A DNA stretch of 64,000 nucleotides. Source: Candidatus Dormiibacterota bacterium. GTDB taxonomy: Bacteria > Chloroflexota > Dormibacteria > CF-121. The stretch's first letter is position 1, and each line of letters opens with the position of its first letter. The position numbers and the translations under genes were made by a program. The stretch spans positions 7,939 to 71,938 of the forward strand of contig DATEHI010000052.1 of assembly GCA_035279665.1 (NCBI GenBank), in the 5' to 3' direction. The notes beneath the pieces were generated by a model. It was not told where the DNA came from and did no database searches. It was given only the letters and a program-made list of their open reading frames with translations. Below are positions 2,894-46,710 of the stretch, piece by piece.

Positions 2894-7534
<4,641 letters not shown>

Positions 7535-10368: not shown

Positions 10369-10390
10369 GCGATCGCCGCCGCCGAATCAT

Positions 10391-13758: not shown

Positions 13759-13818
13759 CGCGGAAGCAAGCGAAAGATGAGGGGACGGCGCCTGCTGGTC
13801 ACCGTCCCCTCAGCCTAA

Positions 13819-15045
13819 CTAAGGCCAGTTCGGCTTCGGAAACTCGGGCTTGTTGGAGCCGGCCACGGTCGGGGGATAGACAAAGACTGCCTGGCCGGAT
13901 TGCCATTGTTCGATGTAGACGCCCACGCCACCCTGCGGCTTGCCCGTACTGTCGAAGGACATGGGGCCCTGGATCGTCTGGTAGGTCCCCGAATGCAAGG
14001 CGATGATCAGCTTCGAGTTCTCGATGCTGTTCGCCTTCTTGGCCGCCTGCTCGACCACCTGGCCAACACTGTAGGCCTCGGCGGCGTCGGCGCTGATGCC
14101 GCCAGCCGTACCGCCGTACTTGGCGATGAACTCGCTGACGAACTGGCTGTTGCCATAGGCGGTGGCATCAGACGTCCAGCCGGCCGGCACCATCACACCC
14201 TCGTCCGCCGAACCCACCTTGTCGGAGAAATCCTTGCCCTGGTCCGGGCCGGTGGTTTCGATCAGCGACTTGGGGTTGTAGTGCTGTTGCTGGAAGACCT
14301 TGATGAAGGCGACGGCGTCGGGGATCTGTGTTCCCAGGATCACGACGTCGGCATTCGCATGGATCATCTGCAGGGCGATCGGCGTGAAGTCCGTCGTCTC
14401 CGCTGGATATACCTTGTACCCACCGGACGGTGTGGTGATCCCGCCGGCCTCGAGCAGGGCCTTGGCCTTGTCGACTTGCGGCTGGGTGAAGGGATCATCC
14501 TGCGTCGCGTAGGCGGCGGTCTTCGGGCGCTGGCTGCTGGGGAGTCCGAGCAGCCATTTCGTATAGCTCACGAGGTTGTCTTCGACGGCCGCCGGCTGCA
14601 CGAAGAAAATGGACTTCAGGCCGCGGTTGAAGACGGCCGGACCGCCGCCGGCCGGCTCGGGAAAGGCGTAGCCATAACGGTCAGTGACCGTGGAGGCCGG
14701 GATCGTCAGCAGCGAGCTGAACGGTCCGAAGACCAACGCCACCTTCTCCTGCGTGATCAGGTTTGTATAGTTCGTGACCACCTGCTGCTGGCTGCTGGCG
14801 TCGTCGACGTATTTCATGGTTACCTGGTGCCCGAGCAGTCCGCCCTTCTTGTTGACGTCCTGCATCCACAGGTCATACCCCTGCTCCAGCGCTTTCCCGT
14901 CGGTCGAGAAGTCGCCGCTCAGCGATACGGAGACTCCGATCGTAATCGGCGCCTGGGGTGACGCGGTCGTGCTCGCCGTTGAGCTGCCGCACGCTGATAG
15001 AACCAGGGCGAACCCGGCCACGATCATCGACACGGGCTTACGCAT
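13819..15045 (-). CDS. livJ: ABC transporter substrate-binding lipoprotein, Leu/Ile/Val-binding (type I PBP) family
   Basis: Lipoprotein signal peptide with lipobox LSAC. PBP-I fold motifs (ITIGVSVSLSGDFS, KYVDDASSQQ). First gene of the liv operon. Confidence 0.88.
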   Translation of the reverse strand: MRKPVSMIVAGFALVLSACGSSTASTTASPQAPITIGVSVSLSGDFSTDGKALEQGYDLWMQDVNKKGGLLGHQVTMKYVDDASSQQQVVTNYTNLITQEKVALVFGPFSSLLTIPASTVTDRYGYAFPEPAGGGPAVFNRGLKSIFFVQPAAVEDNLVSYTKWLLGLPSSQRPKTAAYATQDDPFTQPQVDKAKALLEAGGITTPSGGYKVYPAETTDFTPIALQMIHANADVVILGTQIPDAVAFIKVFQQQHYNPKSLIETTGPDQGKDFSDKVGSADEGVMVPAGWTSDATAYGNSQFVSEFIAKYGGTAGGISADAAEAYSVGQVVEQAAKKANSIENSKLIIALHSGTYQTIQGPMSFDSTGKPQGGVGVYIEQWQSGQAVFVYPPTVAGSNKPEFPKPNWP

Positions 15046-15107
15046 GCTCCCTCCCTTCGGGCCAGAATCGACTCATTCTTTTGGCTCAGCCGGTTTGTTC
15101 TTGCATT

Positions 15108-15123
15108 GAACAAACGATTGTTC
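15108..15123. promoter_or_regulatory. Candidate LacI-family operator (GAACAAACGATTGTTC) in the divergent livJ/lacI promoter region, flanked by extra TTGTTC half-sites (15095..15100)
   Basis: Near-palindrome with central CG seen in sequence. It shares the core CAAACG(A/T)TTG with the perfect palindrome at 17372..17385. Confidence 0.35.
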
Positions 15124-15166
15124 TATGTTAGGCACGGGTCATACGATTGTCAATGAGGACGCGAGC

Positions 15167-16222
15167 ATGCCGGTCACACTGAAGCAGCTGGCCGCTCGCG
15201 CCCACGTCCACCCCTCCACCGTCTCGCGGGTCGCCAACCACGATCCGAGCCTGCGCATCGGCCCCGTCACACGGCAGCGGATCGAGACGCTGCTCCGCGA
15301 AACCGAATACCGCCCCAACGGCGTCGCCCGCGGGCTGAAGCTGGCGCAGACCCTGGTGCTCGCGGTGGTCATCCCCGACGTTACCAACCCCTTTTTTGCG
15401 GCCCTCTTTCGCGGCGTCGAGGATGGCGCCACGCCACGGGGGTATAACGTCCTGCTCTGCAACACGGATGGGAGTCCAGAGCGCCAGCGCTCGCACGTGC
15501 GAAGCCTGCACGCGCGTCGGGTCGATGGCGTCATTCTCGCCAGCAGCTTCCTCAAAGATCCGACGGTTCGCTGGCTGCGGCAGCAGCACATTCCCTATGT
15601 GTTGGTGAATCGGTTCAGCGACGAGGACCAGGACCCATTCGTCGGCTCGGACGACCTCGTCGGGGCCCGGGTCGCCACAACGCACCTCGCCCAACTCGGC
15701 CATCGCCGCATCGGCCACCTCGCCGGCAAGCCAACCGTCAGCACCGGAGTGCTACGTCGGCGGGGCTACCTCTGCGCGCTCCGCGATGCCGGCCTGACTC
15801 CGGACCCAGCCCTGGTCATCGAGTCCGGCTATACGGAGGAGGGCGGCGCGCGGGCGGCCGAGCGCCTGCTCGCGCTCGAAGATCGACCCACGGCCCTCTT
15901 CGCCGTGACCGACATGACGGCGGTGGGGGCTTTCGGCGCGGCCCGCCGGATGGGTTTGCGCGTCCCCGAGGACGTGGCGATCGTGGGCTACAACGACATC
16001 CCGCTGGCGATGCGAATGGTACCGGCACTCACAACGGTGCACGTCCCGATCCATGATTTCGGGGCCGCGGCGGCTCGCTTGCTGCTGGAGCAGATCGAGA
16101 CGGGCGAGCGCAGCCGGCGACGGGTGATCTTCAATCCCGAGCTGATCGTCCGCGGGTCGACGGTTGCCGGCGCTGGCACTCAAGCGGCTCACCAAGCCGT
16201 ACCGGCGTTTGCCAGCGAATGA
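15167..16222 (+). CDS. LacI-family transcriptional regulator
   Basis: N-terminal HTH (VTLKQLAARAHVHPSTVSRVAN) and periplasmic-binding-protein-like sugar-binding core. Start chosen at MPVTLKQ (ATG 15167). Confidence 0.9.
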   Translation: MPVTLKQLAARAHVHPSTVSRVANHDPSLRIGPVTRQRIETLLRETEYRPNGVARGLKLAQTLVLAVVIPDVTNPFFAALFRGVEDGATPRGYNVLLCNTDGSPERQRSHVRSLHARRVDGVILASSFLKDPTVRWLRQQHIPYVLVNRFSDEDQDPFVGSDDLVGARVATTHLAQLGHRRIGHLAGKPTVSTGVLRRRGYLCALRDAGLTPDPALVIESGYTEEGGARAAERLLALEDRPTALFAVTDMTAVGAFGAARRMGLRVPEDVAIVGYNDIPLAMRMVPALTTVHVPIHDFGAAAARLLLEQIETGERSRRRVIFNPELIVRGSTVAGAGTQAAHQAVPAFASE

Positions 16223-16232
16223 TGACACTGCA

Positions 16233-17171
16233 ATGGTAAGCAATCGTTTGCGCACACTCGGCTGGATTGGGACGGGGCGAATGGGATCGGTACTCGCCAC
16301 CCGCCTGCTGGAGCACGGCTGCGACCTGACGGTCTACAACCGCACTCGGGCCAAGGCCGAAGCACTGGCGCAGCACGGCGCGCGCATCGTTGATCAGCCG
16401 GCGGACCTGCGCGACCGCGACATCGTCATCACCTCCGTCGCGGGATCCCGTGACTTCGCCGAGGTGATGACCGGGCCGCACGGTCTCCTCGCGAACGGCA
16501 GCCGGGTGCCCGCGATGGTGATCGACACGTCCACCGTTTCGATGGACGTCTCGCAAACGATCCGTCAGAAGGCGGCCGAGCTCGGTGCGGCGCTGCTCGC
16601 GGCGCCGGTCAGCGGCAACCCGAAGGTCGCGCGCGCCGGCAAGTTGAGCCTGGCCGTGTCGGGGCCACGCCAGGCGTTCGAAGACGCGCTGCCCTACCTG
16701 GAGATGCTGGGAAAGAGCGTGACCTATGTCGGTGAGGGCGAGGCGGCCAGGCTGGTCAAGATCTGCCACAACCTCATCCTGGGCGTCGTCACGCAGATCC
16801 TCGCCGAGACAATCATCCTCGCGGAACGCGGCGGCATCAGCCGCGCCGACTACCTCGCGTTCATCAACGACAGTGTGATGGGCTCGACATTCAGCCGCTA
16901 CAAGACGCCTGCATTCGTCAGCCTCGATTTCACGCCGACCTTCACCGGCCACTTGCTGCGGAAGGACTTTGAACTCGGTTTGGACGCCGCGCGCCAGCTC
17001 GACGTTCCGTTGCCGGTCGCGGCCCTCACCCACCAGATCGTCGTCAGCCTTATCGAGAACGGCCTGGGCGAGGTCGATTTTGCCGCGCTCCTCGAGCTCG
17101 AGGCCCGTGGAGCGAATCTCCACCTGGCTCCGGAGGCACGCGAGATGTCGGACGGACTCGAGGCAGACTAA
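16233..17171 (+). CDS. NAD(P)-dependent oxidoreductase, 3-hydroxyisobutyrate / 6-phosphogluconate dehydrogenase-like (HIBADH family)
   Basis: Dinucleotide-binding motif LGWIGTGRMGSVLATRLLEHGCDLTVYNRT and a HIBADH-like C-terminal domain. Start at MVSNRL, 10 bp after the lacI stop. Confidence 0.85.
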   Translation: MVSNRLRTLGWIGTGRMGSVLATRLLEHGCDLTVYNRTRAKAEALAQHGARIVDQPADLRDRDIVITSVAGSRDFAEVMTGPHGLLANGSRVPAMVIDTSTVSMDVSQTIRQKAAELGAALLAAPVSGNPKVARAGKLSLAVSGPRQAFEDALPYLEMLGKSVTYVGEGEAARLVKICHNLILGVVTQILAETIILAERGGISRADYLAFINDSVMGSTFSRYKTPAFVSLDFTPTFTGHLLRKDFELGLDAARQLDVPLPVAALTHQIVVSLIENGLGEVDFAALLELEARGANLHLAPEAREMSDGLEAD

Positions 17172-17337
17172 CCCGACGCGCGGTCCGCGATGGACGCACC
17201 ACCAGGGCGGAGCGGCGCTACAGACAACCGCTCTGCGCCGGTATCCGTATCGCCGCCCCCTTCGCCGCCCTGGCACTCGGGGATAGCACGTCGCGAACCC
17301 CTCGCTGACCGCCATGCTAACCACCCCCATTTGATCT

Positions 17338-18294: not shown

Positions 18295-19566
18295 TTGAGC
18301 GCGGTGGCACGAACGAAATCCGAGTTCACCGTGACCTCCGTCCCCGCACCGGGGCGGATGCACGTCGATTGGGAGGAACGGGTCGATTTCCGCCGCCTCC
18401 ACGACTACCGGCTGGGACGCACCCGCCAGGCGATCGCGAATGCCGGCCTCGGTGCGGTGCTGGTCTTCGACATGAACAACATCCGCTACATCACCAGCAC
18501 CACCATCGGCGAGTGGGCGCGCGACAAGATGGCTCGCTTCGCGCTGCTGACCCGGGGCGGCGACCCGATCCTGTGGGATTTCGGCTCGGCGGCGAAGGCG
18601 CATCGCCTGCACGCGCCCTGGCTGCGGCCAGAGAATTCTCGAGCCGGAATGACGGGTCTACGTGGGTCCGTTGCCCCCGATGCGGGCCTCTCGGATGACG
18701 TCGCGATGACCGTAAAGGACCTGATGCGCGAGCAAGGCGTCGCCGGCGAGCCGCTTGGCGTCGACATCGCCGAGCTGCCGATGGTCTTCGCGCTGGAGAA
18801 GGCGGGCATCAACGTCGTCGATGCGCAGCAGGCGATGCTCGACGCGCGACAGATCAAGTCCCAGGACGAGATCACGCTGCTCAGCATGTCGGCCGCGCTC
18901 GTCGATGGCGTCTACCAGACGATCTACGAAGTGTTGAAGCCGGGCATCCGCGAGAACGAGATCGTCGCGATTGCCAACAAGCAGCTCTACGACATGGGCT
19001 CCGACGATGTCGAGGCGATCAATGCCGTGTCGGGCGAGCGTTGCAGCCCGCATCCTCATGTCTTCTCCGATCGCCTCATCCGGCCCGGCGACCAGGCGTT
19101 CTTCGACATCATCCAGGCCTACAACGGCTATCGCACCTGCTACTACCGGACCTTCAACGTCGGCCGCGCGACGCAGAGCCAGCGCGACGCCTACAAGAAG
19201 GCGCGCGAATGGATCGATGCGGGGATCGACATGGTGAAGCCCGGGGTCACGACCGACATGATCGCCCGGGCCTGGCCGAAAGCGCAGGATTTCGGCTTCG
19301 AGAACGAGATGGAGGCCTTCGGCCTACAGTTCGGGCACGGCCTTGGGCTGGCGCTGCACGAACGACCGATCATCAGCCGCCTCACTTCGCTCGACCACCC
19401 GGTCGAACTGAACGAGGGCATGGTCTTCGCCCTGGAAACCTATTGCCCGGCGTCGGACGGCCATTCGGCGGCGCGCATCGAGGAGGAAATCGTGGTGACG
19501 GCGACGGGGCACGAGGTGATCACCCTCTTCCCCGCCGAGGAGCTCGTCATCGCGAACGCCTATTGA
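18295..19566 (+). CDS. M24-family metallopeptidase (creatinase / Xaa-Pro dipeptidase / ectoine-hydrolase-like)
   Basis: Creatinase-type N-terminal domain followed by a pita-bread catalytic domain with metal ligands (DxxxD...H...E...E pattern). Start uncertain: TTG at 18295 or ATG at 18358. Confidence 0.8.
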   Translation: MSAVARTKSEFTVTSVPAPGRMHVDWEERVDFRRLHDYRLGRTRQAIANAGLGAVLVFDMNNIRYITSTTIGEWARDKMARFALLTRGGDPILWDFGSAAKAHRLHAPWLRPENSRAGMTGLRGSVAPDAGLSDDVAMTVKDLMREQGVAGEPLGVDIAELPMVFALEKAGINVVDAQQAMLDARQIKSQDEITLLSMSAALVDGVYQTIYEVLKPGIRENEIVAIANKQLYDMGSDDVEAINAVSGERCSPHPHVFSDRLIRPGDQAFFDIIQAYNGYRTCYYRTFNVGRATQSQRDAYKKAREWIDAGIDMVKPGVTTDMIARAWPKAQDFGFENEMEAFGLQFGHGLGLALHERPIISRLTSLDHPVELNEGMVFALETYCPASDGHSAARIEEEIVVTATGHEVITLFPAEELVIANAY

Positions 19567-28882: not shown

Positions 28883-30577
28883 CTACCTTGTCTCGGCGAG
28901 GGCTCGCACCCGCAAGGCGAGTAGCAGGTCGAGTCGGGCGTCGGCGTCCTTGAGGTCGACCCCGGTGACCTCGCTGATCCGGCGAAGCCGGTAATGAAGC
29001 GTGTTGAGGTGAATGTGCAGGTCACGCGACGACTGCCGGAGGTTGCCATGCCGCTGTAGGTAGACCTCGAGCGTCTTCAGTAACGGCGTGCCACGGGCAC
29101 GGTCGTAGTCGACCAGCGGCGCCAGCATTCGGCCGGCAAAGGCGTCCAGGCCGGCTCGATCTTCGACCTGCGCCAGCAGCCGGTAGACGCCCAGCCGCTC
29201 GTAGTTGATGACCTGCTCGCGTTTGCCGAAGCGCACCATCAGGTCGAGCGCGCGCTGGGCTTCGACGAAGGCGGGCTTGAAGTCTTCCGGCTTCACGCAG
29301 AGCCGGCCGATCGAGACCGACACCGTGATGCCGAGCTCCGACTCGGCGACGGCCTCGCGGATCCGCGTGGCCAGGCCCTCGGCCTCGGGGTCCATGCCGT
29401 CAGCAGGTTGGGGTACCAGCACGATGACGCTATCGCTGTGGGCGCTGACCAGGTGGCGCGGATGCTGCCGGCGAACTGCGCCGGTCACCACCTGGAACAG
29501 CTGATGCTTGAGCGCGATGACGCGCCCTTCCTCGTAGCGTCGCTCTCTGATGAACCGTCCGAAGTGATCCACGTCCACCACCAGCAGCCGGTGTGGCACC
29601 GACAGGTCATAGCGAAGATGTCGCGCCCGGCGCTGCACGTTCGCCTGATCGCCAAAGGTGCCGTTGAGCAGGTCATCGACCAGCTCGCCGCGCACGCGGT
29701 CCTCGGCTTCCGCCACCTCGCGCTGTTTGATCATCTCGAGCGCTATCACCGTGGCGGCGTGCTCGACGGCGATCATAGCGAGCTCCTCGAGATGCTGGGG
29801 ATGGTCGATGATCGAGAGCAAGCCGAGGTGCTCGCGCCCGGCGAGGACCGGCGTGATGATGCGGGGCGCGGTCAGCCCAAGTTCGGGAAATGGGGGAACC
29901 TTACGGGGGACGCGGCCGACGACCACCTCGTGCAGCATGGCTTTGATGGCGGCGGACTGCTGGACCTTGGGCGGCGTGCCGTGGTGGGCGAGCGTCTGCT
30001 GCCGGTGCTTGTCTGTGACGCCGGGAACGACGTGGCTGGCCAGCAGCCGGAAGCTCGCGTCTTCCAGCGCGATCGAGCTCTCGACCAGCTCGCCAAGCTT
30101 CTTGACGATCACCTCCAGGCCCTGGCCGTCCAGGGCGAGGTCGGTGAACTGCCGGTGGATCTCGATCGAGCGCCGGAGCTGGCTGTTCTGGGCGTTGATG
30201 ATCCGCTCCAGGATCGGGTTCATGATCTCCAGGTAGGAGACGTCCGGTGGGATCCGGATCAGAGGAATCTTGAATTCGTCCGCCTGGCCAAGCATGTCCT
30301 CCGGGATCTGGGGAAGGTAACGCTCTGGCTTGATGACCAGCCCGGCGGAGCCGACCGCGGCCAGGTTGCGCATCAGGTCCTTCTGGGCCGCCTGGTCATC
30401 CTTGATGGCGAACGCCACGGTCAGCAGGAGCTCGCCCTCCGCGAGCCAACTGATCGTCTCTGGGGATTCGAGTACCTTGACCCAGGTGATCGTGCGGTCG
30501 AGGCCGCCGGCCCCGGCCAGGACCTCGCCCCTCCTCAACCCCCCCAGCGCCATCGCTTCCCGGACTGTGAGCGCCAT
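28883..30577 (-). CDS. PucR/CdaR-family transcriptional regulator
   Basis: C-terminal PucR HTH (LHIHLNTLHYRLRRISEVTGVDLKD) and N-terminal GGDEF-like/PucR sensor region. Located between leuCD and the divergent ilv/leu operon. Confidence 0.85.
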   Translation of the reverse strand: MALTVREAMALGGLRRGEVLAGAGGLDRTITWVKVLESPETISWLAEGELLLTVAFAIKDDQAAQKDLMRNLAAVGSAGLVIKPERYLPQIPEDMLGQADEFKIPLIRIPPDVSYLEIMNPILERIINAQNSQLRRSIEIHRQFTDLALDGQGLEVIVKKLGELVESSIALEDASFRLLASHVVPGVTDKHRQQTLAHHGTPPKVQQSAAIKAMLHEVVVGRVPRKVPPFPELGLTAPRIITPVLAGREHLGLLSIIDHPQHLEELAMIAVEHAATVIALEMIKQREVAEAEDRVRGELVDDLLNGTFGDQANVQRRARHLRYDLSVPHRLLVVDVDHFGRFIRERRYEEGRVIALKHQLFQVVTGAVRRQHPRHLVSAHSDSVIVLVPQPADGMDPEAEGLATRIREAVAESELGITVSVSIGRLCVKPEDFKPAFVEAQRALDLMVRFGKREQVINYERLGVYRLLAQVEDRAGLDAFAGRMLAPLVDYDRARGTPLLKTLEVYLQRHGNLRQSSRDLHIHLNTLHYRLRRISEVTGVDLKDADARLDLLLALRVRALAETR

Positions 30578-30862
30578 GGGAGTGACTAGTATGCCTCAAG
30601 CGCGGGCTGGCGTGAAGGACCAAAGGAACCAACGACTTTTAGATGGTTTGCACAATAGACTCGGGCGCCTGAGGCTGGTAGCGTTTCGGGTTGAGTCAAC
30701 CGGCGTTGATGGGGATTTACTCACCCCCGGAGCTGGCCGGCTCGACAAGAGCGGCGGCCGTGGCCGCAAGCAGGGTGGTACCGCGGGAGGGGATCCTCTC
30801 GTCCTTGCAGCAGGAACGTGTCGTTCGAGCCAGCCAGCTGCAACGAGGAGGAAGGTACCAAA

Positions 30863-31053
30863 TGGCCAGCTACACCATCGAGATCCCTGACGGGCTGCAC
30901 CACGAGATCCAGGAGCGGCGGCACCAGATCGACGTGGCGGATATCTGCACCCAGGCGCTGACCGCCGCCGTCGCCGGAAGGCCCACCGAGGCCCATCCGT
31001 TCGGGCGCGGACACGAGGTCACCGAAGCGATCAATCGCATGTTCAGTGGTTGA
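30863..31053 (+). CDS. Small ribbon-helix-helix-like protein (63 aa)
   Basis: Strong SD GGAGGA 8 nt upstream of the ATG. MASYTIEIPDGLHHEIQERRH fits the RHH beta-strand plus helix pattern of CopG/antitoxin-like DNA-binding proteins. Immediately upstream of the TPP enzyme gene. Confidence 0.5.
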
Positions 31054-36096: not shown

Positions 36097-36152
36097 TCAA
36101 GTTGCAAGGCGGAGGCAGGGACTGTTAGGCTTTTCGGACAACTGAATACCGA

Positions 36153-36258
36153 CGGTTATCAAGAGTGGCGGAGGGACCGGCCCAGAGATGCCTGCCAACC
36201 TACCGGAATACCGGCAAGGTGGAAAGTCCGTCAGACGAGAGTCTGAAAGATGATGCAG
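36153..36258 (+). ncRNA. SAM-I riboswitch (S-box leader) aptamer
   Basis: UUAUCAAGAG-UGGCGGAGGGAC-CGGCCC-AGAGAUGCC-UGCCAACC...GGUGGAAAGUCC...GUCAGACGAGAGUCUGA-AAGAUGA aligns to the S-box consensus nearly position for position (for example B. subtilis yitJ: CUUAUCAAGAGAGGUGGAGGGACUGGCCCGAUGAAACCCGGCAACC...GGUGCCAAUUCC...AAAGAUGAG). Confidence 0.8.
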
Positions 36259-36271
36259 TCACGGACGAGAC

Positions 36272-36298
36272 GGCCCCTCCCCGCAGGGGCTTTTTTTA
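36272..36298 (+). terminator. Intrinsic terminator (riboswitch expression platform): GGCCCCUCCCCGCAGGGGC followed by UUUUUUU
   Basis: GC stem with 7-U tract seen directly, 66 nt upstream of the thrC-like start. Confidence 0.75.
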
Positions 36299-36363
36299 TG
36301 GTGAGGCCGCGAGAATGAGCGGCCCCGGCGTGGAAAGGCCGCGAGAAGATCAGGAGGAAATCG

Positions 36364-37608
36364 GTGAAGCAGTTGCGATGTCGGGAGTGCGGACGATTGC
36401 GGGACTTCGAGCCCGCCTACGTCTGCGAGCACTGTTTCGGACCGCTCGAGGTGGCGTACGACCTCGACGCCGTCAGGGAGCGGGTCAGCCACGACTCGAT
36501 CGCGAAAGGACCGAACACCATCTGGCGCTATCGAGAGCTGTTGCCCGCCCCGGACAGCGAGCCCATCGACCTGGGGACGGGCTTCACGCCGTTGGTGCAC
36601 GCCCCCAACCTCGGGAAGGTCCTGGGCCTCGATCATCTCTACCTGAAGAACGACACGGTGAACCCGACCGGCTCGTTCAAGGATCGCAACGTCGCGGTCG
36701 CCACCAACTTCGCGCTCTCCTACGGCTTCGACACGCTCTCCTGCTCCTCCACCGGTAACCTCGCCGGCTCGGTCGCCGCCTACGCGGCGCGCGCGGGAAT
36801 GCGCGCGCTCGTCTTCATTCCCGCCGATCTGGAGCCGGGCAAAGTCGGCGCGGCGAGCGCCTATGGCGCCACCGTGGTCGAGGTCAACGGCACCTACGAC
36901 GACGTCAACCGGCTGTGCGTCGAGCTCGCCGACCTATACGGCTGGGCGATCGTCAACGTCAACCTCCGGCCGTTCTATTCCGAAGGGAGCAAGACGCTGG
37001 CGTTCGAGGTGGTGGAACAGCTCGGCTGGAGGGCGCCCGATCATATCGTCGTTCCCGTCGCCGCAGGGTCCCTGCTCGCCAAGACCGCCAAGGCGTTCCA
37101 GGAACTCTTCGGCGTCGGCCTCGTCGACCGGGTCTCCACGCGGATCCACGCCGCGCAGGCGGAAGGCTGCGCCCCCGTGAGCACGGCCATCAAGGAAGGC
37201 CGCGACCAGGTCACGCCGGTGCGGCCGAATAGCATCGCGAAGTCACTGGCCATCGGCAACCCCGCCGACGGCCGCTACGCGGCACGGGCGGTGCGCGCCT
37301 CGGGAGGGTGGGGTACCGCCTGCCGCGAGGACGCGGTCCAGAAAGCGATGGCACTGCTGGCCGAGACCGAGGGCGTCCTGAGCGAGCCCGCCGGTGGCGT
37401 CGTGGTCGCCGGGCTCGAGGAACTCATCGGGAGCGGGCGCATCCGGCGGGAGGAAACCGTCGTGATCTGCATCACCGGCAACGGCCTGAAGACGACCGAG
37501 CTCTTCGACGTCCGCGATGGGCTCCGGCTGCACCTGGCGAAGCCCCGCGCGTCAGAGTTCGAGAAGGCGCTGGCTGCTGCGGAAAAAGCCCCAGCCGCGG
37601 TCGCATGA
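36364..37608 (+). CDS. Threonine-synthase-family PLP enzyme with N-terminal Cys4 zinc ribbon (ThrC paralog; MetM-like candidate)
   Basis: CRECGRLRDFEPAYVCEHC zinc ribbon, PLP lysine motif PTGSFKDRN and fold-type II core. GTG start. A second canonical thrC exists at 45670..46710. Confidence 0.85.
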   Translation: MKQLRCRECGRLRDFEPAYVCEHCFGPLEVAYDLDAVRERVSHDSIAKGPNTIWRYRELLPAPDSEPIDLGTGFTPLVHAPNLGKVLGLDHLYLKNDTVNPTGSFKDRNVAVATNFALSYGFDTLSCSSTGNLAGSVAAYAARAGMRALVFIPADLEPGKVGAASAYGATVVEVNGTYDDVNRLCVELADLYGWAIVNVNLRPFYSEGSKTLAFEVVEQLGWRAPDHIVVPVAAGSLLAKTAKAFQELFGVGLVDRVSTRIHAAQAEGCAPVSTAIKEGRDQVTPVRPNSIAKSLAIGNPADGRYAARAVRASGGWGTACREDAVQKAMALLAETEGVLSEPAGGVVVAGLEELIGSGRIRREETVVICITGNGLKTTELFDVRDGLRLHLAKPRASEFEKALAAAEKAPAAVA

Positions 37609-38681
37609 CCCAAACGCTCCGGGTCGGAGTCATTGGCGCGACCGGGCTCGCCGGCCAGCAGGTGCTGGCCGCACTGGTCCAGCACCCGTGGTTCACGGTT
37701 GTGGCGGTGGGCGCCTCCGAGAGCTCGGCCGGGAAATCGCTGGACCACGCGCTCCGTGACCCGTCTGGTGCAAGCCGCTGGTTTGCCGAGGGTCATCCCG
37801 ATGGGTCGCTGCTGTCGCTCCGCTGCCTCAACGCTGAGCAACTCCTCGCGCAGCCGCTCGACCTGGTCTTCAGCGCGGTCTCAAAAGAGGTCGCGGAACT
37901 CTGGGAGCCTCGCTTTGCGGAACGGGTGCCCGTGATCAGCACCGCGTCGGCGTTTCGCTATGACCCCGATGTCCCGATCTTGATCCCCGGGATCAACGAC
38001 GCGCATGCCGAAGCGCTGCACGATCAGCGCCGCAACCGCGGCTGGCGCGGCTTCATCGCGCCGATCCCCAACTGCACGACGAGCGGGCTGGCCGTCTCGC
38101 TGAAGCCGCTCCAGGATGCCTTCGGCGTCCGCACCGTGATGATGACCTCGCTCCAGGCCGTCTCGGGCGCGGGCCGGCAGGACGGGGTGCTGGCGCTCGA
38201 CGTGATTGACAACGTCATCCCCTTCATCCCCGGTGAAGAAGAAAAGGTCGAGCGCGAGACGAAGAAGATCCTCGGGCACTGGGGCGAGCCCGCGCAATTT
38301 ACGGTTTCGTGCACCTGCACCAGGGTCAATGTCCAGGACGGACACCTGGAAGCCGTTTACGTTGGGACGGAGCGGCCCTCCGATGCAGCGACGGCCACCG
38401 CCGCGATGGAGCGGTTCGGCGTCGACGGACTCAAAGGTCTCCCCTCGGCGCCCGAACGGCTGCTGCAGGTCAATCCCGACCCCTTCCGACCGCAACCACG
38501 CCGGGACCGCAACGCGGGCGACGGCATGACGGTCACCGTCGGCCGCGTGCGCGACGAGCCCGCGCTCCACGGGGTGAAGTACGTCGTGCTTTCGCACAAC
38601 ACCAAGCTCGGCGCGGGCAAGGGGGCGGTCCTTACGGCTGAATGGCTGACGCGGGAGGGATTTATTGTCAGCAATTCCTGA
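37605..38681 (+). CDS. asd: Aspartate-semialdehyde dehydrogenase
   Basis: MTQTLRVGVIGATGLAGQQVL NAD(P) motif and active-site region IPNCTTSGLAVSLKPL. ATGA overlap with the upstream gene. Confidence 0.9.
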   Translation: MTQTLRVGVIGATGLAGQQVLAALVQHPWFTVVAVGASESSAGKSLDHALRDPSGASRWFAEGHPDGSLLSLRCLNAEQLLAQPLDLVFSAVSKEVAELWEPRFAERVPVISTASAFRYDPDVPILIPGINDAHAEALHDQRRNRGWRGFIAPIPNCTTSGLAVSLKPLQDAFGVRTVMMTSLQAVSGAGRQDGVLALDVIDNVIPFIPGEEEKVERETKKILGHWGEPAQFTVSCTCTRVNVQDGHLEAVYVGTERPSDAATATAAMERFGVDGLKGLPSAPERLLQVNPDPFRPQPRRDRNAGDGMTVTVGRVRDEPALHGVKYVVLSHNTKLGAGKGAVLTAEWLTREGFIVSNS

Positions 38682-39903
38682 GTCCCTCACGCGACCGATC
38701 CTCGTTCAGAAGTTCGGCGGTACGTCGCTCAGTACGCCTGCCCGCATCAAGCGGGCGGCCAAGCGGGTCGCCGCGAGCCGGCGGACGGGCTACGACGTCG
38801 TCGTTGTGGTCAGCGCCATGGGGGACTCGACCGACCACCTGGTGAGCCTGGCGTCGCAGGTCGCGAAAGAGCCGACCGCGCGCGAGCTCGACCTGTTGCT
38901 CTCGACCGGGGAGGGCGTCTCGGCCCCGCTGATGTCGATGGCCCTCAACGAACTGGGCGTGCCGGCCGTCTCTCTCCTCGGCTTCCAGGCGGGCATCCAG
39001 ACCGACCAACGCCACGCGAAGGCTCGCATCGTCGGTCTTACCCCGGGTCGGATCGAGCGCGAGCTGGCCGCCGGGCGGGTCGTCGTGGTTGCCGGCTTCC
39101 AGGGCATGGGCGACGAGATGGAAGTGACCACCCTCGGACGGGGTGGCTCGGACACGACGGCCGTGGCGCTCGCCGCGGCCCTCAAAGCGCAAGCCTGCGA
39201 GATCTTCACCGACGTGCGCGGCATCTACACCGCCGATCCGCGATTCGTTCCGAACGCGCGATTGCTGCCGCACATCGCTTACCCGGAGATGCTCGAGCTG
39301 GCCAGCTCTGGCGCCCAGGTGATGCACCCGCGAGCCGTCGAGATCGCCGAGGCCTACTCGATGGAGCTGCATGTCCGCTCGAGCTTCCACGCGGGGCCGG
39401 GTACCATCATCAGTTCAGAGGCAACGATCATGGAAGAGCGGAATCGCGTAAGGGGCATCGCGCACGAGGAGCACGTCGCCCGGCTCTCCGTGGTCGGCGT
39501 CCCGGATCGGCCCGGCATCGCCGCCGCCATCTTCGCGCCGCTGGCGGAAGCCGACATCGCCGCCGACGTGATCGTGCAGACCGCGAGCCACGAAGGTGTA
39601 ACCGACATGTCGTTCACGGTGTCATCGGCCGACGGCAGGCAGGCCGAGCGCATCGTCCAGGGCGTCGCCAAAGAAATCGGCGCGCGCACGGTGCTCGCGC
39701 AAAACGGCCTCGCCAAGGTCTCCGTGATCGGGAGCGGCATCCGTGGGCAACCTGGCGTGGCGGCGACCATGTTCCGCACGCTGTCGGACCACGGCATCAA
39801 CATCGAGATGATCTCCACGTCGGAGGTGCGCATCACCTGCATCATCGAGGCAAGAAAGGTCAAGGACGCCGTCACGGCTCTGCACGAGGCGTTCAGGCTG
39901 TAG
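38665..39903 (+). CDS. lysC: Aspartate kinase with C-terminal ACT domains
   Basis: LVQKFGGTSL kinase N-terminus and two ACT-like repeats at the C-terminus (LSVVGVPDRPGIAAAIF..., VSVIGSGIRGQPGVAATMF...). TTG start overlaps the asd 3' end. Confidence 0.88.
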   Translation: MSAIPESLTRPILVQKFGGTSLSTPARIKRAAKRVAASRRTGYDVVVVVSAMGDSTDHLVSLASQVAKEPTARELDLLLSTGEGVSAPLMSMALNELGVPAVSLLGFQAGIQTDQRHAKARIVGLTPGRIERELAAGRVVVVAGFQGMGDEMEVTTLGRGGSDTTAVALAAALKAQACEIFTDVRGIYTADPRFVPNARLLPHIAYPEMLELASSGAQVMHPRAVEIAEAYSMELHVRSSFHAGPGTIISSEATIMEERNRVRGIAHEEHVARLSVVGVPDRPGIAAAIFAPLAEADIAADVIVQTASHEGVTDMSFTVSSADGRQAERIVQGVAKEIGARTVLAQNGLAKVSVIGSGIRGQPGVAATMFRTLSDHGINIEMISTSEVRITCIIEARKVKDAVTALHEAFRL

Positions 39904-40817
39904 TGTCCAAAAGCGCCGCGGTGCGGGTCCCGGCATCGTCGGCCAACCTCGGACCGGGCTTCGATGTGCTCGCCCTGGCGCTCGACCTCCACCTCACGCT
40001 CGAGGCGCGCGAGTCGCCGACGACGACGATCACCTGGAAGGGCGAAGGCGCCGGGGAAGTGCCGCTCAACCGCAAGAACCTGATCGTCCGCGCAGCCGAG
40101 GAGCCGTTTGCGGGTTGGAGCCGCCCGCTGAGTGGACTCGAGGTTCGCGTGAAGAACGACATACCGATCGGCCGCGGCCTGGGCAGCAGTGCCGCCGGTA
40201 TCGTCGCGGGGATCACGCTGGGAGCGAAACTGCGCGGCCTGCGAATGCCGGCGCAGCGGCTCCTCGAGCTCGCCATCCCGCTCGAGGGCCATGGTGACAA
40301 CCTGGCAGCCGCGCTCTACGGTGGCTTCTGCATCGCCGTCATCGAAAACGGCGGGGTGCGCGTGCACCGCCTCGACTGGCCAGCCCGCTGGCGGGCCGTC
40401 CTGTTCGTTCCGAACGAAGTATCTCCCACTCACGAGGCCCGCCGCCTGGTGCCGCGCCGTCCAACGCGCGAGGATGCGGTCTTCAATCTTGGCCGGGTCG
40501 CGGAGTGGGTGCTCGCGTGCTCCCAGAAGGACCGCTCGCTGGTCGCTAGCGCGATGGACGACCGGCTGCATCAGCCCGGCCGGGCGCAGGCCTATCCCTA
40601 TCTGGACGACACGATCGCGGCGGCCGAACAGGCGGGGGCCCTGGGGGCGGCGCTCAGCGGCGCGGGCGGCAGTGTCATCGCCGTTGCGGATCGAAACCTG
40701 GCGGCCGTCGGCATGGCGATGATCAGGGCCGCGGGCTTGCACGGAGTCAAGGGGAGTATGGCCATGCTGAGGGCCTCGCCGGCCGGCGCTACCCTGAAAA
40801 AAGACCGGTCCCTGTAA
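39903..40817 (+). CDS. thrB: Homoserine kinase (GHMP kinase family)
   Basis: VPASSANLGPGFDVLALAL and GHMP motif PIGRGLGSSAAGIVAG. GTG start overlapping the lysC stop. Confidence 0.9.
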   Translation: MSKSAAVRVPASSANLGPGFDVLALALDLHLTLEARESPTTTITWKGEGAGEVPLNRKNLIVRAAEEPFAGWSRPLSGLEVRVKNDIPIGRGLGSSAAGIVAGITLGAKLRGLRMPAQRLLELAIPLEGHGDNLAAALYGGFCIAVIENGGVRVHRLDWPARWRAVLFVPNEVSPTHEARRLVPRRPTREDAVFNLGRVAEWVLACSQKDRSLVASAMDDRLHQPGRAQAYPYLDDTIAAAEQAGALGAALSGAGGSVIAVADRNLAAVGMAMIRAAGLHGVKGSMAMLRASPAGATLKKDRSL

Positions 40818-40855: not shown

Positions 40856-41272
40856 GTGGAGACGTGCTTCTCCATGCCTGCGATTTCAGATGAGAAGGAG
40901 GTGAGAAGCATCACTCCAACCCAACGCGTAATCACGATTGTCGGCGTCGCCGGATCGCTCATCGCGGGCGGCGTGATCGGGGCCACACTGGCCGGTCCGC
41001 TGGCGGCCGCGGCGGCGAACACGAGCAATTCGACTCAGCAGATCACGGCAACGGCAGCTCCGAGCGCGAGCGCCGGTACTTTCAAGTCCAACGAGGACGC
41101 GACCCACGAGGCTGGTGAAAGCGCCACCGTCGAGGCCCAGGAGAATTCAGGCCAGCGGCCGGGCGGCGGATCCGGGAAATTCACCCCGAACGAGAACGCG
41201 GCGCACGAGACGACCGAGAGCGCCGCACGCGAAGCACAGGAGAACGCGGGCCAGCGCCCGACCGTTCCCTAA
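40856..41272 (+). CDS. Small secreted/membrane-anchored protein with an internal tandem repeat of about 31 aa
   Basis: N-terminal hydrophobic segment ITIVGVAGSLIAGGVIGATLAGPLAAAAA. Repeats ...NEDATHEAGESATVEAQENSGQRPGG / ...NENAAHETTESAAREAQENAGQRPTVP seen in translation. Confidence 0.45.
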   Translation: METCFSMPAISDEKEVRSITPTQRVITIVGVAGSLIAGGVIGATLAGPLAAAAANTSNSTQQITATAAPSASAGTFKSNEDATHEAGESATVEAQENSGQRPGGGSGKFTPNENAAHETTESAAREAQENAGQRPTVP

Positions 41273-41363: not shown

Positions 41364-41927
41364 ATGGCGGAGATCGTCTCGGACGAAATCGAGATCGCAG
41401 CCCACTGGCCCCTTCCCCGGTTCGGGGTCCACCGGGTCAGGTACGGGATCCCGCTGATGGCGGCTTCCTACCTCGCACTCGTATTGACGGTGGTGCGGTA
41501 TCTTCCGGGCATACACGATCCGCGGCTCCTCTACGGCGTTGCGTTTCCGGTCGTGGCGTGCATCCTGACTACCTGGGGCGCCTCGTACTACGACGGGACG
41601 ACGATCATGGCCAACCGCGACCACGTCACTCTGAAGCGCTGGTGGCGGCGGCCGGCGGTTGTCCCCATCAGCGAGGTCGCTCGGATCGTTCGACTCACCG
41701 TCGATGAGCCTACGAAGAACGGCACGACCCCGAGACCCGCGCTTTTCTTTTTCAATTCCAAGGGCCGCTGCGTCCTCTCGCTGTTCTCGGCTCGTTTTGA
41801 TGATCGCGACCTGGCGCAATTGTGGTCGACCATCGGAATGGAGCCCGAAGGCAGCTTGGACGATCACGTGAAGATCATGAAGCTGGGCGATCGCTTTCCC
41901 GGAGCCTTCGACAAGCCCGCCGCCTAG
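41364..41927 (+). CDS. Hypothetical membrane protein (two TM segments, possible bacterial PH-like domain)
   Basis: ORF with hydrophobic segments LMAASYLALVLTVVRYL and VAFPVVACILTTWGA. ATG at 41364. No recognisable catalytic motif. Confidence 0.45.
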   Translation: MAEIVSDEIEIAAHWPLPRFGVHRVRYGIPLMAASYLALVLTVVRYLPGIHDPRLLYGVAFPVVACILTTWGASYYDGTTIMANRDHVTLKRWWRRPAVVPISEVARIVRLTVDEPTKNGTTPRPALFFFNSKGRCVLSLFSARFDDRDLAQLWSTIGMEPEGSLDDHVKIMKLGDRFPGAFDKPAA

Positions 41928-44611: not shown

Positions 44612-45646
44612 TCATGAGGCTGCAGGATACGGGTTCTTTGGTCCGAGCGGCGCGACCGCCGTCAGCGGCATGTCCGCCAGGCTCGCGAGCAGCGAGCCCG
44701 CTGACGCGGGCACATCCCTTGCCGCCCGTAACAGATCGGCGAGCACCGCGCTCGCGGCGGCGTCCGGGCCGGCCCCCGGCCCTTCAAAGGTGAGCGGCCC
44801 GGCGTATTCGGCGTCGAGGCTGATCGCATTCATCGCGCCATGGACGCGCGCCATCGGCGCAGCCGCGGGGACCAGTCGTGGACGGACGTCGGCCTCGATA
44901 GAGGCATCGTCGTGGATCGTCGCCGCCGCGAGTAGCTTGATGACGAATCCACGCCCGCGTGCCGCCTCGACCTGCACCGGATCGACGCCACGAATCCCGA
45001 CCCGATCAATCTGGGAGGGATCGATGCGGCGCCGAAAGGCCAGCATCACGAGGATGGCAAGCTTGGCGGCCGGGTCATGCCCATCGACGTCGGCGCTCGG
45101 ATCGGCCTCGGCGAGGCCGCGGCGCTGAGCGTCCGCGAGGGCTTCCGCATAGGTCGCCCCGCCGTCAATCGCGGCGAGGATCGAGTTGGTCGTGCCGTTG
45201 AGGATGCCCATGATCGAGCGGATCCGGTCCGCGCCGAGCGTGTCGGCCAGGGTTTCGACGATCGGGATCGCGCTGGCGACGGAGGCCTCGAACCGAATCG
45301 GCCCGAGTCGCGCCAGCTGCGGCCCTTCCGCGGCGATCAACTGCTTGTTGGCCGTAATCACCTGGCGGCCTGCCTGGAGCGCCGTATGTATATAGGTATG
45401 CGCCGGTTCCAGGCCGCCCATCACCTCGACGACGGCATCGAGCTGTGGCTGGGCCAGCAATTGCGCGGCGGGGAGCAATGGTGCCGGTGCGCGCCGGCCC
45501 TGAGGGTGCGCCACCGCAATGGCTTCCAGCTGGATCGGCCGGCCGGCGGCCTGCGTGATCCGATCGGCATCCTCCACCAACCGTCGCGCCAGCGCTCCGC
45601 CGACGTGGCCAAGGCCGAGCAGCCCAACGCGATACGGGGCACGCAT
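44612..45646 (-). CDS. hom: Homoserine dehydrogenase (no C-terminal ACT domain)
   Basis: VGLLGLGHVGGALARRL NAD-binding motif, catalytic-domain motifs and ANKQL. 344 aa. Confidence 0.88.
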   Translation of the reverse strand: MRAPYRVGLLGLGHVGGALARRLVEDADRITQAAGRPIQLEAIAVAHPQGRRAPAPLLPAAQLLAQPQLDAVVEVMGGLEPAHTYIHTALQAGRQVITANKQLIAAEGPQLARLGPIRFEASVASAIPIVETLADTLGADRIRSIMGILNGTTNSILAAIDGGATYAEALADAQRRGLAEADPSADVDGHDPAAKLAILVMLAFRRRIDPSQIDRVGIRGVDPVQVEAARGRGFVIKLLAAATIHDDASIEADVRPRLVPAAAPMARVHGAMNAISLDAEYAGPLTFEGPGAGPDAAASAVLADLLRAARDVPASAGSLLASLADMPLTAVAPLGPKNPYPAAS

Positions 45647-45669: not shown

Positions 45670-46710
45670 ATGACCGCCGGCATCATCGAGCGCTACGCGG
45701 CGTATCTGCCGGTTACCCCGTCGACCCCCCGCATCACGCTTGGTGAGGGGTCGACACCACTAGTCCGGTCGTCGAGGATAGGCCCGGCGATCGGGCTCGA
45801 CCAGCTCTATTTCAAATGCGAGGGCCTGAATCCGAGCGGGTCGTTCAAGGACCGCGGGATGGCGCTCGCCACGGCCAGGGCGATCGAGGCCGGGTCCCGA
45901 ACGCTGATGTGCGCCTCGACCGGGAACACGAGCGCCTCTGCGTCGGCCTATGCCGCCCGCTTTGGTCTGCGCGCGGTCGTGGTCGTGCCCGCCGGAGGCG
46001 TCGCCGCCGGAAAACTGGCGCAGGCACTCGCCTATGGCGCGATCATCGTGACCGTCAAGGGATCGTTCGACCGCGCGCTGACCCTTGTGCGCAAGCTGGC
46101 GGACGAACCTACTGTCACCCTGGTGAACTCGGTCAACCCCTATCGCATCGAGGGTCAGAAGACAGCGGCCTTCGAGATCATCGAACAGCTGGGCCGCCCA
46201 CCGGCACAGCTCTTCATTCCGGTGGGCAACGCCGGCAACATCACCGCCTACTGGCGCGGGTTTCGCGAGCTCGCCGGCCGCAGTACCGCGTCACTCCCGA
46301 CGCTGCACGGCGCGCAGGCCAAGGGAGCGGCGCCGCTGGTCCGCGGACGGCCGGTGGCACGGCCGCAGACGGTCGCGTCCGCGATTCGGATCGGCAACCC
46401 CGCCTCCTGGAGCGCCGCCATTGCGGCACGTGACGAGTCGGGCGGCACGATCGAAGCCGTCAGCGACGACGAGATCATCGCGGCGCAGCGACGGCTGGCG
46501 CGCGAAGAAGGTCTGCTGGTCGAGCCGGCATCAGCGGCCGCCGTGGCCCTTTTGCTGAAAAGGGCGCCCGCCGGAACCCTGGGCGACGAGCCGGTTGTTT
46601 GCGTGCTTACCGGTCATGGGCTCAAGGATCCGCAGGCCCTGACTCGTGGCTCACGAGTGCCTCGGCCCGTTGAGCCGACGCTCAAGGCGCTGCGACGCGC
46701 GATCGGCTAA
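45670..46710 (+). CDS. thrC: Threonine synthase (canonical short actinobacterial/Bacillus type)
   Basis: Near-colinear with M. tuberculosis ThrC (EGLNPSGSFKDRGMALA..., CASTGNTSASASAYAAR, VNSVNPYRIEGQKTAAFEI, VGNAGNITAYW, LTGHGLKDP). Confidence 0.95.
   Translation: MTAGIIERYAAYLPVTPSTPRITLGEGSTPLVRSSRIGPAIGLDQLYFKCEGLNPSGSFKDRGMALATARAIEAGSRTLMCASTGNTSASASAYAARFGLRAVVVVPAGGVAAGKLAQALAYGAIIVTVKGSFDRALTLVRKLADEPTVTLVNSVNPYRIEGQKTAAFEIIEQLGRPPAQLFIPVGNAGNITAYWRGFRELAGRSTASLPTLHGAQAKGAAPLVRGRPVARPQTVASAIRIGNPASWSAAIAARDESGGTIEAVSDDEIIAAQRRLAREEGLLVEPASAAAVALLLKRAPAGTLGDEPVVCVLTGHGLKDPQALTRGSRVPRPVEPTLKALRRAIG

Follow-up and report, generated by a model that had tools for sequence, protein, structure and literature searches.

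A SAM-I riboswitch ahead of a predicted MetM-type enzyme and its substrate-supply genes in a probable Dormibacterota genome

A 64,000-nt stretch of contig DATEHI010000052.1 (assembly GCA_035279665.1, positions 7,939-71,938 of the forward strand; Candidatus Dormiibacterota bacterium), here called the window, contains a SAM-I (S-box) riboswitch and an intrinsic terminator, followed by four overlapping genes for a zinc-ribbon pyridoxal phosphate (PLP) enzyme of the threonine synthase (ThrC) family, aspartate-semialdehyde dehydrogenase (asd), aspartokinase (ask) and homoserine kinase (thrB). It is quite probable that this locus is a methionine operon that S-adenosylmethionine (SAM) gates by transcription attenuation, and that it combines an enzyme of the MetM type with the supply of its substrate. 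Sequence comparison indicates that the ThrC-like protein is most likely a MetM-type enzyme and not a canonical threonine synthase, with homocysteine as the predicted product; we call its gene metM-like. An earlier, sequence-only reading of this stretch overstated the novelty of the locus, as the association of a SAM riboswitch with metM and the wide distribution of MetM and its sulfur carrier MetO were already published in 2024, and the pathway is in GapMind. What is new here is the layout of the operon, with asd-ask-thrB behind the switch, and a sulfur carrier that is either unlinked or absent.

Riboswitch leader and operon layout

An Rfam cmscan of the entire window, with the gathering score as cutoff, returned RF00162 as the only family above that score. 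The match covers the whole SAM-I model (Table 1) and confirms the S-box aptamer that the sequence-only reading had placed at 36153..36258. After a gap of 15 bases comes the terminator hairpin (−12.3 kcal/mol when folded alone), which had likewise been proposed from the letters and was recovered at the same position by a terminator scan. For comparison we used ten related loci (nine distinct sequences; L002-L005, L010 and L092-L096, with L004 from MAG GCA_036794385.1 and L010 from JBDTEO01) from five other lineages, six with the window, which encode metM-like proteins 81-92% identical to the window protein; the DNA examined per locus was mostly the ±10 kb around the metM-like gene, and at most ~21 kb. 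All ten carry a SAM-I aptamer directly upstream of this gene, and the orthologous leaders score 45.9-64.6 bits. Among five close leaders the P4 helix alone varies, with both of its sides changed (CAGAC/GTCTG in the window versus CCGGC/GCCGG in L010), the other helices being invariant. The terminator is also conserved: its stem (GGCCCCT...AGGGGC) and T-run do not vary among five aligned related leaders, and the terminator scan called the same terminator in L010. A chance or relic match to the SAM-I model was considered and ruled out, the aptamer being the sole Rfam match in 64 kb and being kept with its terminator in six lineages.

The unconstrained minimum free energy (MFE) fold of 36140-36310 lacks the aptamer. 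In this fold a conserved segment of the aptamer core and P2 (GGCGGAGGGACC, 36165-36179) pairs with 36271-36284, that is, with bases that overlap the 5' arm of the terminator, and the resulting antiterminator helix is mutually exclusive both with the aptamer and with the terminator. This antiterminator/terminator arrangement is the classical S-box expression platform, and the leader RNA is predicted to bind SAM. At low SAM the two arms would pair, the antiterminator would form and RNA polymerase would enter the operon; with SAM bound, the antiterminator pairing would be freed, the hairpin and its U-tract would form, and transcription would end at ~36298, ahead of the first gene.

The leader may also be transcribed from a start of its own. 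A TGnTA(G/C)(G/T)CT motif lies at a constant distance from the aptamer in the leader alignment (L002, L003, L005 and L010), and the conservation of this extended −10 element in the window, together with TTGCAA 17-18 nt upstream of it, suggests a dedicated promoter, on which a consensus promoter scanner made no call at 36102-36131. As no predicted terminator separates the riboswitch from the ilvE stop (36096), transcripts of the ilv operon could also extend into the riboswitch. Downstream of the terminator, still ahead of the ribosome-binding site, the 12-nt sequence AGGCCGCGAGAA occurs twice in direct orientation (36304-36315 and 36336-36347); the repeat-bearing stretch of ~40-50 nt is missing from the leaders of L002, L003, L005 and L010 and looks like a small duplication or insertion.

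The four genes behind the switch had been read as a translationally coupled series, and domain and family models confirmed their identities and their overlaps (36364-40817). The ATG of asd lies over the TGA of the metM-like gene (ATGA), the TTG start of ask sits 17 nt inside asd with GGGAGGG ahead of it, and ask and thrB overlap in TAGTG; asd, ask and thrB would thus be translationally coupled to the metM-like gene. In the pathway that we propose, aspartate would be converted by way of aspartyl phosphate and aspartate semialdehyde to homoserine, the last step by Hom, whose gene is unlinked and lies 4 kb downstream, and then to O-phosphohomoserine, on which the MetM-family enzyme would exchange the phosphate of O-phospho-L-homoserine for sulfur to give homocysteine. 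With the metM-like gene and asd-ask-thrB on one SAM-controlled transcript, SAM would throttle the committed enzyme and its substrate supply together.

The surroundings of this unit differ among the related loci. Upstream, L002 and L095/96 share the ilvBC-leuA-ilvE context of the window; the flanks of L003-L005 are wholly different, with glycosyltransferases upstream and gltB downstream. In L092-L094, where the metM-like protein is 81.6% identical to that of the window, the order is SAM-I, metM-like, asd and ask, without thrB. In L010, hemA-hemL-lysE are inserted behind the metM-like gene and are followed by asd-ask-thrB, with an intergenic gap of ~530 bp separating these genes from the riboswitch-controlled metM-like gene; SAM control of asd-ask-thrB is therefore not obligatory in the lineage. 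The constant unit is the riboswitch plus the ThrC-like gene, usually fused to asd-ask(-thrB). Across six lineages, in which the flanking genes fall into three different sets, riboswitch and expression platform are kept, and because aptamer, terminator and gene arrangement recur in nine further loci, spread over the five other lineages and differing in their flanks, the arrangement is not a chance co-occurrence.

Table 1. Features of the SAM-I operon and of the related genes in the window (positions of the window)
Feature	Position	Strand	Evidence and remarks
Putative promoter	−35 TTGCAA 36102-36107; extended −10 TGnTAGGCT 36123-36131	+	Read from sequence, inferred
SAM-I (S-box) aptamer	36153-36256	+	RF00162, 61.8 bits vs gathering score 44.4, E 6e-12, model 1-108 of 108
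Antiterminator helix (predicted)	5' arm 36165-36179; 3' arm 36271-36284	+	MFE fold of 36140-36310, −62.1 kcal/mol, 13 long-range pairs
Intrinsic terminator	36272-36298	+	Terminator scan; 7-bp GC-rich stem GGCCCCTCCCCGCAGGGGC, 6-nt loop, T7
Shine-Dalgarno AGGAGG	36352-36357	+	Read from sequence; 6 nt ahead of GTG start at 36364
metM-like gene (zinc-ribbon ThrC-family PLP enzyme, 414 aa)	36364-37608	+	PALP domain 244 bits; predicted O-phosphohomoserine-dependent homocysteine synthase
asd, aspartate-semialdehyde dehydrogenase (archaeal/EA type)	37605-38681	+	TIGR00978 327 bits, PRK08664 345 bits
ask, monofunctional aspartokinase, two ACT domains	38665-39903	+	NF005155 544 bits; AA_kinase + ACT_9/ACT_7
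thrB, GHMP-type homoserine kinase	39903-40817	+	TIGR00191 235 bits vs cutoff 168
hom, homoserine dehydrogenase	44612-45646	-	Homoserine_dh 183 bits, NF004976 333 bits; outside the riboswitch operon, supplies the step missing there
Canonical thrC (346 aa, no zinc ribbon)	45670-46710	+	TIGR00260 288 bits; canonical ThrC clade in neighbour-joining tree

Identity of the ThrC-like protein

The protein encoded by the metM-like gene begins with a CxxC-x11-CxxC zinc ribbon, of which all four cysteines (C6, C9, C21 and C24) are present, and it belongs to a family of 400-445-aa proteins with the same ribbon that proved large in a search of 1.84 billion cluster representatives. An alignment of this family served as query against 185,579 species genomes; we retained the best 80 loci, 79 of them outside the lineage of the window, and inspected these by tblastn, hidden Markov model (HMM) and a custom covariance model. 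The best loci outside the lineage encode ThrC-like proteins 52-58% identical to the window protein, and 71 of the 79 carry a gene of ~91 codons for a ThiS-fold protein within a few hundred bases downstream. The C-terminus of this MetO-like protein almost invariably reads ...(S/E)IVPA(V/I)AGG, at times with a short extension. MetO-linked loci span Chloroflexota, Cyanobacteria, Acidimicrobiia, Nitrospirota, Planctomycetota, Acidobacteriota and others. Of the 80 genome loci, 23, none of them cyanobacterial, have a SAM-I aptamer immediately ahead of the ThrC-like gene.

As an actinomycete proxy for the MetM of Streptomyces albulus we used the chromosome of Nonomuraea gerenzanensis, a cultured species (PLSDB NZ_LT559118.1, L091), in which a SAM-I aptamer (68.7 bits) precedes a homolog 52% identical to the window protein, followed in turn by a carrier gene (MetO HMM E 2.5e-37). 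The PLSDB entry, named 'plasmid I', is 11.85 Mb long with 10 annotated features and is evidently a chromosome; the aptamer, the metM-like gene and metO lie at 11.81 Mb. When a Micromonosporaceae homolog was used as query in a homology search, all matches came from Micromonosporaceae.

A neighbour-joining tree was built from 86 family members together with the canonical ThrCs of the same loci. It unites the window protein with its relatives in a single clade, which is nested within the MetM-like group and lies at a great distance from the canonical ThrCs, that of the window among them. We then took as diagnostic those 30 columns of the catalytic domain at which MetO-linked proteins are at least 90% conserved and canonical ThrC holds a different, likewise conserved residue; at 27 of these the window protein carries the MetM residue. 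The earlier proposal of a MetM-type paralog thus agrees, at the level of sequence, with the tree, with the diagnostic columns and with membership of a clade that is almost always MetO-linked and often preceded by SAM-I. T88, S155, N157 and R160 of Thermus thermophilus ThrC correspond to L133, N200, R202 and Y205 in the window protein, and T88, S155 and R160 are invariant in the eight co-resident canonical ThrCs that we examined. These three residues are reported to bind the phosphate of the substrate (Omi et al. 2003), in which case the leaving-group pocket would be remodelled.

The PLP lysine K106 in SFKDR is invariant, and an AlphaFold model (pLDDT 84.5) has threonine synthases as its best PDB matches (TM 0.68-0.82), with no MetM-type structure among the PDB entries searched. 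At 151 family-conserved columns the window protein holds the family residue in 140. Eleven positions that are at least 90% conserved in MetO-linked enzymes carry clade-specific substitutions, among them V109N, three residues past the PLP lysine, T342P within the E-T-A-G-G loop, and E324A; nothing in the sequences marks a functional shift from these eleven.

Of the window, 58 kb are identical to a soil-metagenome contig in ENA. The closest named genome locus is that of a metagenome-assembled genome (MAG) labelled Candidatus Dormibacter sp., whose ThrC-like protein is 82% identical, against at most 58% in other species genomes. NCBI labels for near-identical MAG proteins conflict, naming Candidatus Angelobacter or Acidoferrum (Acidobacteriota) or Chloroflexi. 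Since true Terriglobia and Acidobacteriaceae loci hold another homolog, MetO-linked and 53% identical to the window protein, we treat the origin of the window as probably Dormibacterota.

Rival functions and the sulfur donor

Several observations weigh against the locus being a MetM-type methionine operon. The window protein passes the generic ThrC model TIGR00260 (269.9 bits versus a cutoff of 167.1). L092-L094 lack thrB as well as a canonical thrC within ±10 kb, and on this local evidence the paralog may have a threonine role in that lineage. The connection with the characterised MetM of S. albulus is drawn from synteny and from secondary citations. Control by SAM of thrB, ask and asd, which also serve threonine, lysine and diaminopimelate (DAP), is physiologically awkward if these are the sole copies; tblastn found no second copy of any of the three in the window, and the awkwardness may be eased by paralogs elsewhere, a leaky terminator or an internal promoter. 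Finally, a MetO-like open reading frame (ORF) was found neither in the window, whether with an HMM built from 71 MetO sequences (best E = 1.5) or among small ORFs ending in GG, nor by HMM in the DNA around the gene in the ten related loci, and no ThiF/MoeZ or JAMM (Mec) gene was found in the same DNA.

The first of these points bears on the alternative that the paralog is a second genuine, or a bifunctional, threonine synthase, with the riboswitch tying the common aspartate pathway to SAM status. The protein falls one bit below the cutoff of the 'threonine synthase' model PRK08197 (302 versus 303), threonine synthases are its top PDB matches, it shares its operon with ask, asd and thrB, which are classical genes of the threonine pathway, and in L092-L094 no canonical thrC lies near hom, in the interval from hom to leuB that holds the canonical thrC of the window. 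MetO-linked members, however, score the same way, just under the cutoff of PRK08197 and above that of TIGR00260, so that neither model discriminates; that these NCBIfam models score all members alike also accounts for the universal label 'threonine synthase'. Against a second threonine synthase there stand moreover the canonical thrC 8 kb away, which groups with other true ThrCs, the grouping of the paralog with enzymes tied in their genomes to a sulfur carrier and to SAM riboswitches, and the replacement of the ThrC-invariant T88, S155 and R160. Control of threonine-specific genes is not known for SAM riboswitches. Taken together, these data make a threonine synthase highly improbable. The separate canonical thrC beside hom had been noticed at 45670..46710 in the sequence-only reading and was found there; it is divergent from the adjoining hom and 41% identical to the metM-like paralog.

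Also highly improbable is a different gamma-replacement on O-phosphohomoserine, yielding cystathionine from cysteine or some other SAM-related metabolite. The missing sulfur carrier leaves the nucleophile open, and ThrC-fold enzymes with other nucleophiles exist, namely cysteate synthase and CapA2 (PDB 9k3c, among the fold matches). Neither the operon nor its conserved neighbours, however, include a cystathionine beta-lyase or another partner, family-conserved residues are retained to a high degree, and the cysteate synthase model TIGR03844 gives the window protein only 62 bits against a cutoff of 324.9.

There remains the question of the sulfur donor of a MetM-type enzyme. The absence of metO from the window, as the sequence-only reading had it, was borne out by the searches above, and neither Pfam nor the gene-call annotation revealed a rhodanese or met gene elsewhere in the window. 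An adjacent metO is also lacking in one metagenome locus (L006) and in 8 of the 79 genome loci; its adjacency to metM is typical, not universal, ~10% of other lineages being without it. Two Anaerolineae loci (L012 and L042, both from MAGs) are instructive in this respect: they present SAM-I, the metM-like gene and then a ThiF-family activating enzyme, ask, hom and asd, without metO, from which we conclude that a carrier-activating enzyme can be co-operonic while the carrier gene is elsewhere. In L012 the order (9768-17188) is metM-like, a PRTase-domain ORF, ThiF, ask, DinB, hom and asd; L042 (2896-10727) also has an MttB-family methyltransferase. Fusion of the metM-like gene with aspartate-pathway genes arose at least twice.

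These loci bear on the possibility that the MetM-like enzyme has dispensed with a protein carrier and acts as a direct sulfhydrylase on O-phosphohomoserine with free sulfide or a small donor, which we regard as rather unlikely. It would account for the lack of metO, ThiF and JAMM genes around the gene in six lineages, as opposed to an adjacent metO in ~90% of the others, and for the clade-wide change of eleven positions, V109N and T342P among them, that are at least 90% conserved in MetO-linked enzymes. On the other hand, deviations at the family-conserved columns number 10-13 of 151 in the clade of the window, on a par with the 13-14 of metO-bearing Acidobacteria homologs, and neither the zinc ribbon nor any other family signature is disrupted. 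The Anaerolineae loci with an in-operon ThiF-family enzyme argue that it is normal for a carrier to be unlinked, the GapMind 2026 preprint has moeZ and mec as steps of their own in the Streptomyces pathway, and ~20-64 kb without a carrier says little about a genome of several Mb. Relaxed or shifted conservation, considered as a sign of MetO loss, was dropped, the deviations being no greater than in the MetO-linked Acidobacteria.

The sequence-only reading had allowed for either direct use of sulfide or a carrier encoded elsewhere. Of these, direct sulfide use gains no positive support, 140 of the 151 columns being kept, and we favour an unlinked carrier of the MetO type. As to the donor itself, a thiocarboxylated carrier of the MetO type, with its gene at another place in the genome, is on balance the likelier, and free sulfide or another donor is a lesser possibility. 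A carrier-free MetM-type enzyme working with free sulfide or a small donor, in a genome whose only ask, asd and thrB are those of the operon, would make SAM a master regulator of methionine, threonine and lysine/DAP synthesis; this combination we consider doubtful.

Some MetO-like genes of other loci depart from the usual C-terminus. In MAGs of Deltaproteobacteria (L066 11266-11781), Planctomycetia (L069 6334-6906) and Omnitrophota (L039 3041-3475) the MetO-like ORF runs on beyond GG into an extension that by eye is NIL/ferredoxin-like (...ARVTETVGEMTLELEG...KGI.VEP) and may represent a fused sulfur-carrier variant. L008 (9432-9758) and several other MetO-like genes continue for 1-25 residues past the ...AGG motif, consistent with a need for C-terminal processing.

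Gene neighbourhood and known systems

The operon lies in an amino-acid biosynthesis supercluster (window 27.5-47.8 kb) composed of leuCD, a PucR regulator, ilvB-ilvC-leuA/cimA-ilvE, the SAM operon, mgsA, trpG-trpE, hom, thrC and leuB. Between the PucR-family regulator (28883-30577, minus strand) and ilvB, a 63-aa ORF without Pfam match (30862-31053, plus strand) is not rich in branched-chain residues and thus unlike a classical leader peptide; a gene of 60-63 aa occupies the equivalent position in L002, L092, L093 and L095/96. Directly after thrB come two plus-strand ORFs without family matches (40856-41272 and 41364-41927), the first of which has a hydrophobic segment at its N-terminus and contains a ~27-aa motif twice (NEDATHEAGESATVEAQENSGQRP / NENAAHETTESAAREAQENAGQRP), and an unannotated gene of 120-132 aa also follows or lies near thrB in L002 and L095. 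The remainder of the window comprises, at 1-26 kb, gltB, a branched-chain amino-acid ABC system, LacI regulators, an aldehyde dehydrogenase and others, and, at 47-64 kb, two-component systems, sigma factors and transporters. A DUF222 + HNH endonuclease ORF (1108-2523, plus strand) adjoins gltB (2894-7534, minus strand), and an exact-match look-up of the protein encoded at 18295-19566 gave no record.

With this locus a little-known soil phylum, probably Dormibacterota, joins the organisms that apparently make methionine via O-phosphohomoserine and a MetM-type enzyme. Genes of this clade that are labelled 'threonine synthase' are probably homocysteine synthases, which matters for metabolic reconstruction and for the prediction of auxotrophies from MAGs. 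The fusion to asd-ask-thrB and the consistent lack of a linked metO make the locus a test case for MetM donors other than MetO-thiocarboxylate, and also for the partition of O-phosphohomoserine between threonine and methionine. As pathway and riboswitch control are published, it extends a known system and is no discovery of kind, and it will not surprise the specialist. Our literature search returned nothing on S-box control of thrB, ask or asd, on ThrC phosphate-pocket residues or on Dormibacterota methionine metabolism.

The closest known system is that of S. albulus, where MetM, a ThrC homolog, forms homocysteine from O-phospho-L-homoserine and thiocarboxylated MetO (Hasebe et al. 2024, Appl Environ Microbiol 90:e01247-24; here as cited in PMC12172450 and bioRxiv 10.1101/2024.10.14.618325). 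A SAM riboswitch is reported upstream of S. albulus metM, with metO adjacent in other organisms and homologs in cyanobacteria (PMC12172450). The GapMind 2026 preprint models the MetM pathway with MoeZ and Mec as added steps, Mec for maturation, and states that MetM is often misannotated as threonine synthase; a further preprint (bioRxiv 10.64898/2026.09.15.751699) describes the MetM/MetO pathway as well. Akin to S. albulus, the window has a ThrC-homologous first enzyme behind a SAM riboswitch, a predicted O-phosphohomoserine substrate drawn from the threonine branch and a 'threonine synthase' label from standard pipelines, and its protein falls in the clade with a MetO-type ThiS-like gene downstream in ~90% of lineages. 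It differs in that metO is not linked, that asd, ask and thrB share the SAM-controlled transcript, and that the phylum is another one, probably Dormibacterota. The nearest figure for identity is the 52% to the Nonomuraea gene of the same layout, which stands in for the characterised protein.

A mechanistic model for MetM/MetO is offered by CysM/CysO/Mec of Mycobacterium tuberculosis, in which a fold-type II PLP enzyme makes cysteine from O-phosphoserine and CysO-thiocarboxylate, the phosphate being displaced by a thiocarboxylate of the ThiS/MoaD type. That reaction is a beta-replacement on phosphoserine by an enzyme of the CysK/CysM family, not a ThrC-family gamma-replacement, and the carrier gene is in the cluster. 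Cysteate synthase adds a sulfur nucleophile, sulfite, onto phosphoserine; it and CapA2 (TIGR03844; PDB 9k3c) are ThrC-fold enzymes like the window protein (fold match TM 0.80), with only 18% identity to it. Canonical threonine synthases (TIGR00260; PDB 1UIM, 2ZSJ, 6CGQ and 2D1F) have in common with it the fold, the substrate, the SFKDR lysine and the STGN loop, at 36-41% identity, whereas the window protein has an extra N-terminal zinc ribbon of ~50 residues, different genomic partners and 30 clade-specific substitutions, including T88L, S155N, N157R and R160Y in T. thermophilus numbering.

In plants, sulfur enters the methionine pathway at O-phosphohomoserine through cystathionine gamma-synthase, so that the methionine and threonine branches compete for the product of homoserine kinase. 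The predicted point of sulfur entry is the same in the window; unlike the window enzyme, that of plants is a fold-type I PLP enzyme which forms cystathionine from cysteine, and control is exerted by mRNA stability and SAM activation of ThrC, with no riboswitch. Competition of the two branches for O-phosphohomoserine is also taken up in bioRxiv 10.64898/2026.09.15.751699. Methionine- or SAM-responsive control of an aspartokinase and of asd has a parallel in Escherichia coli metL (aspartokinase II) and in the inclusion of asd in some MetJ regulons (PMC3228920). There, a protein repressor acts on dedicated isoenzymes; here, a riboswitch stands over what are possibly the only local copies of ask, asd and thrB.

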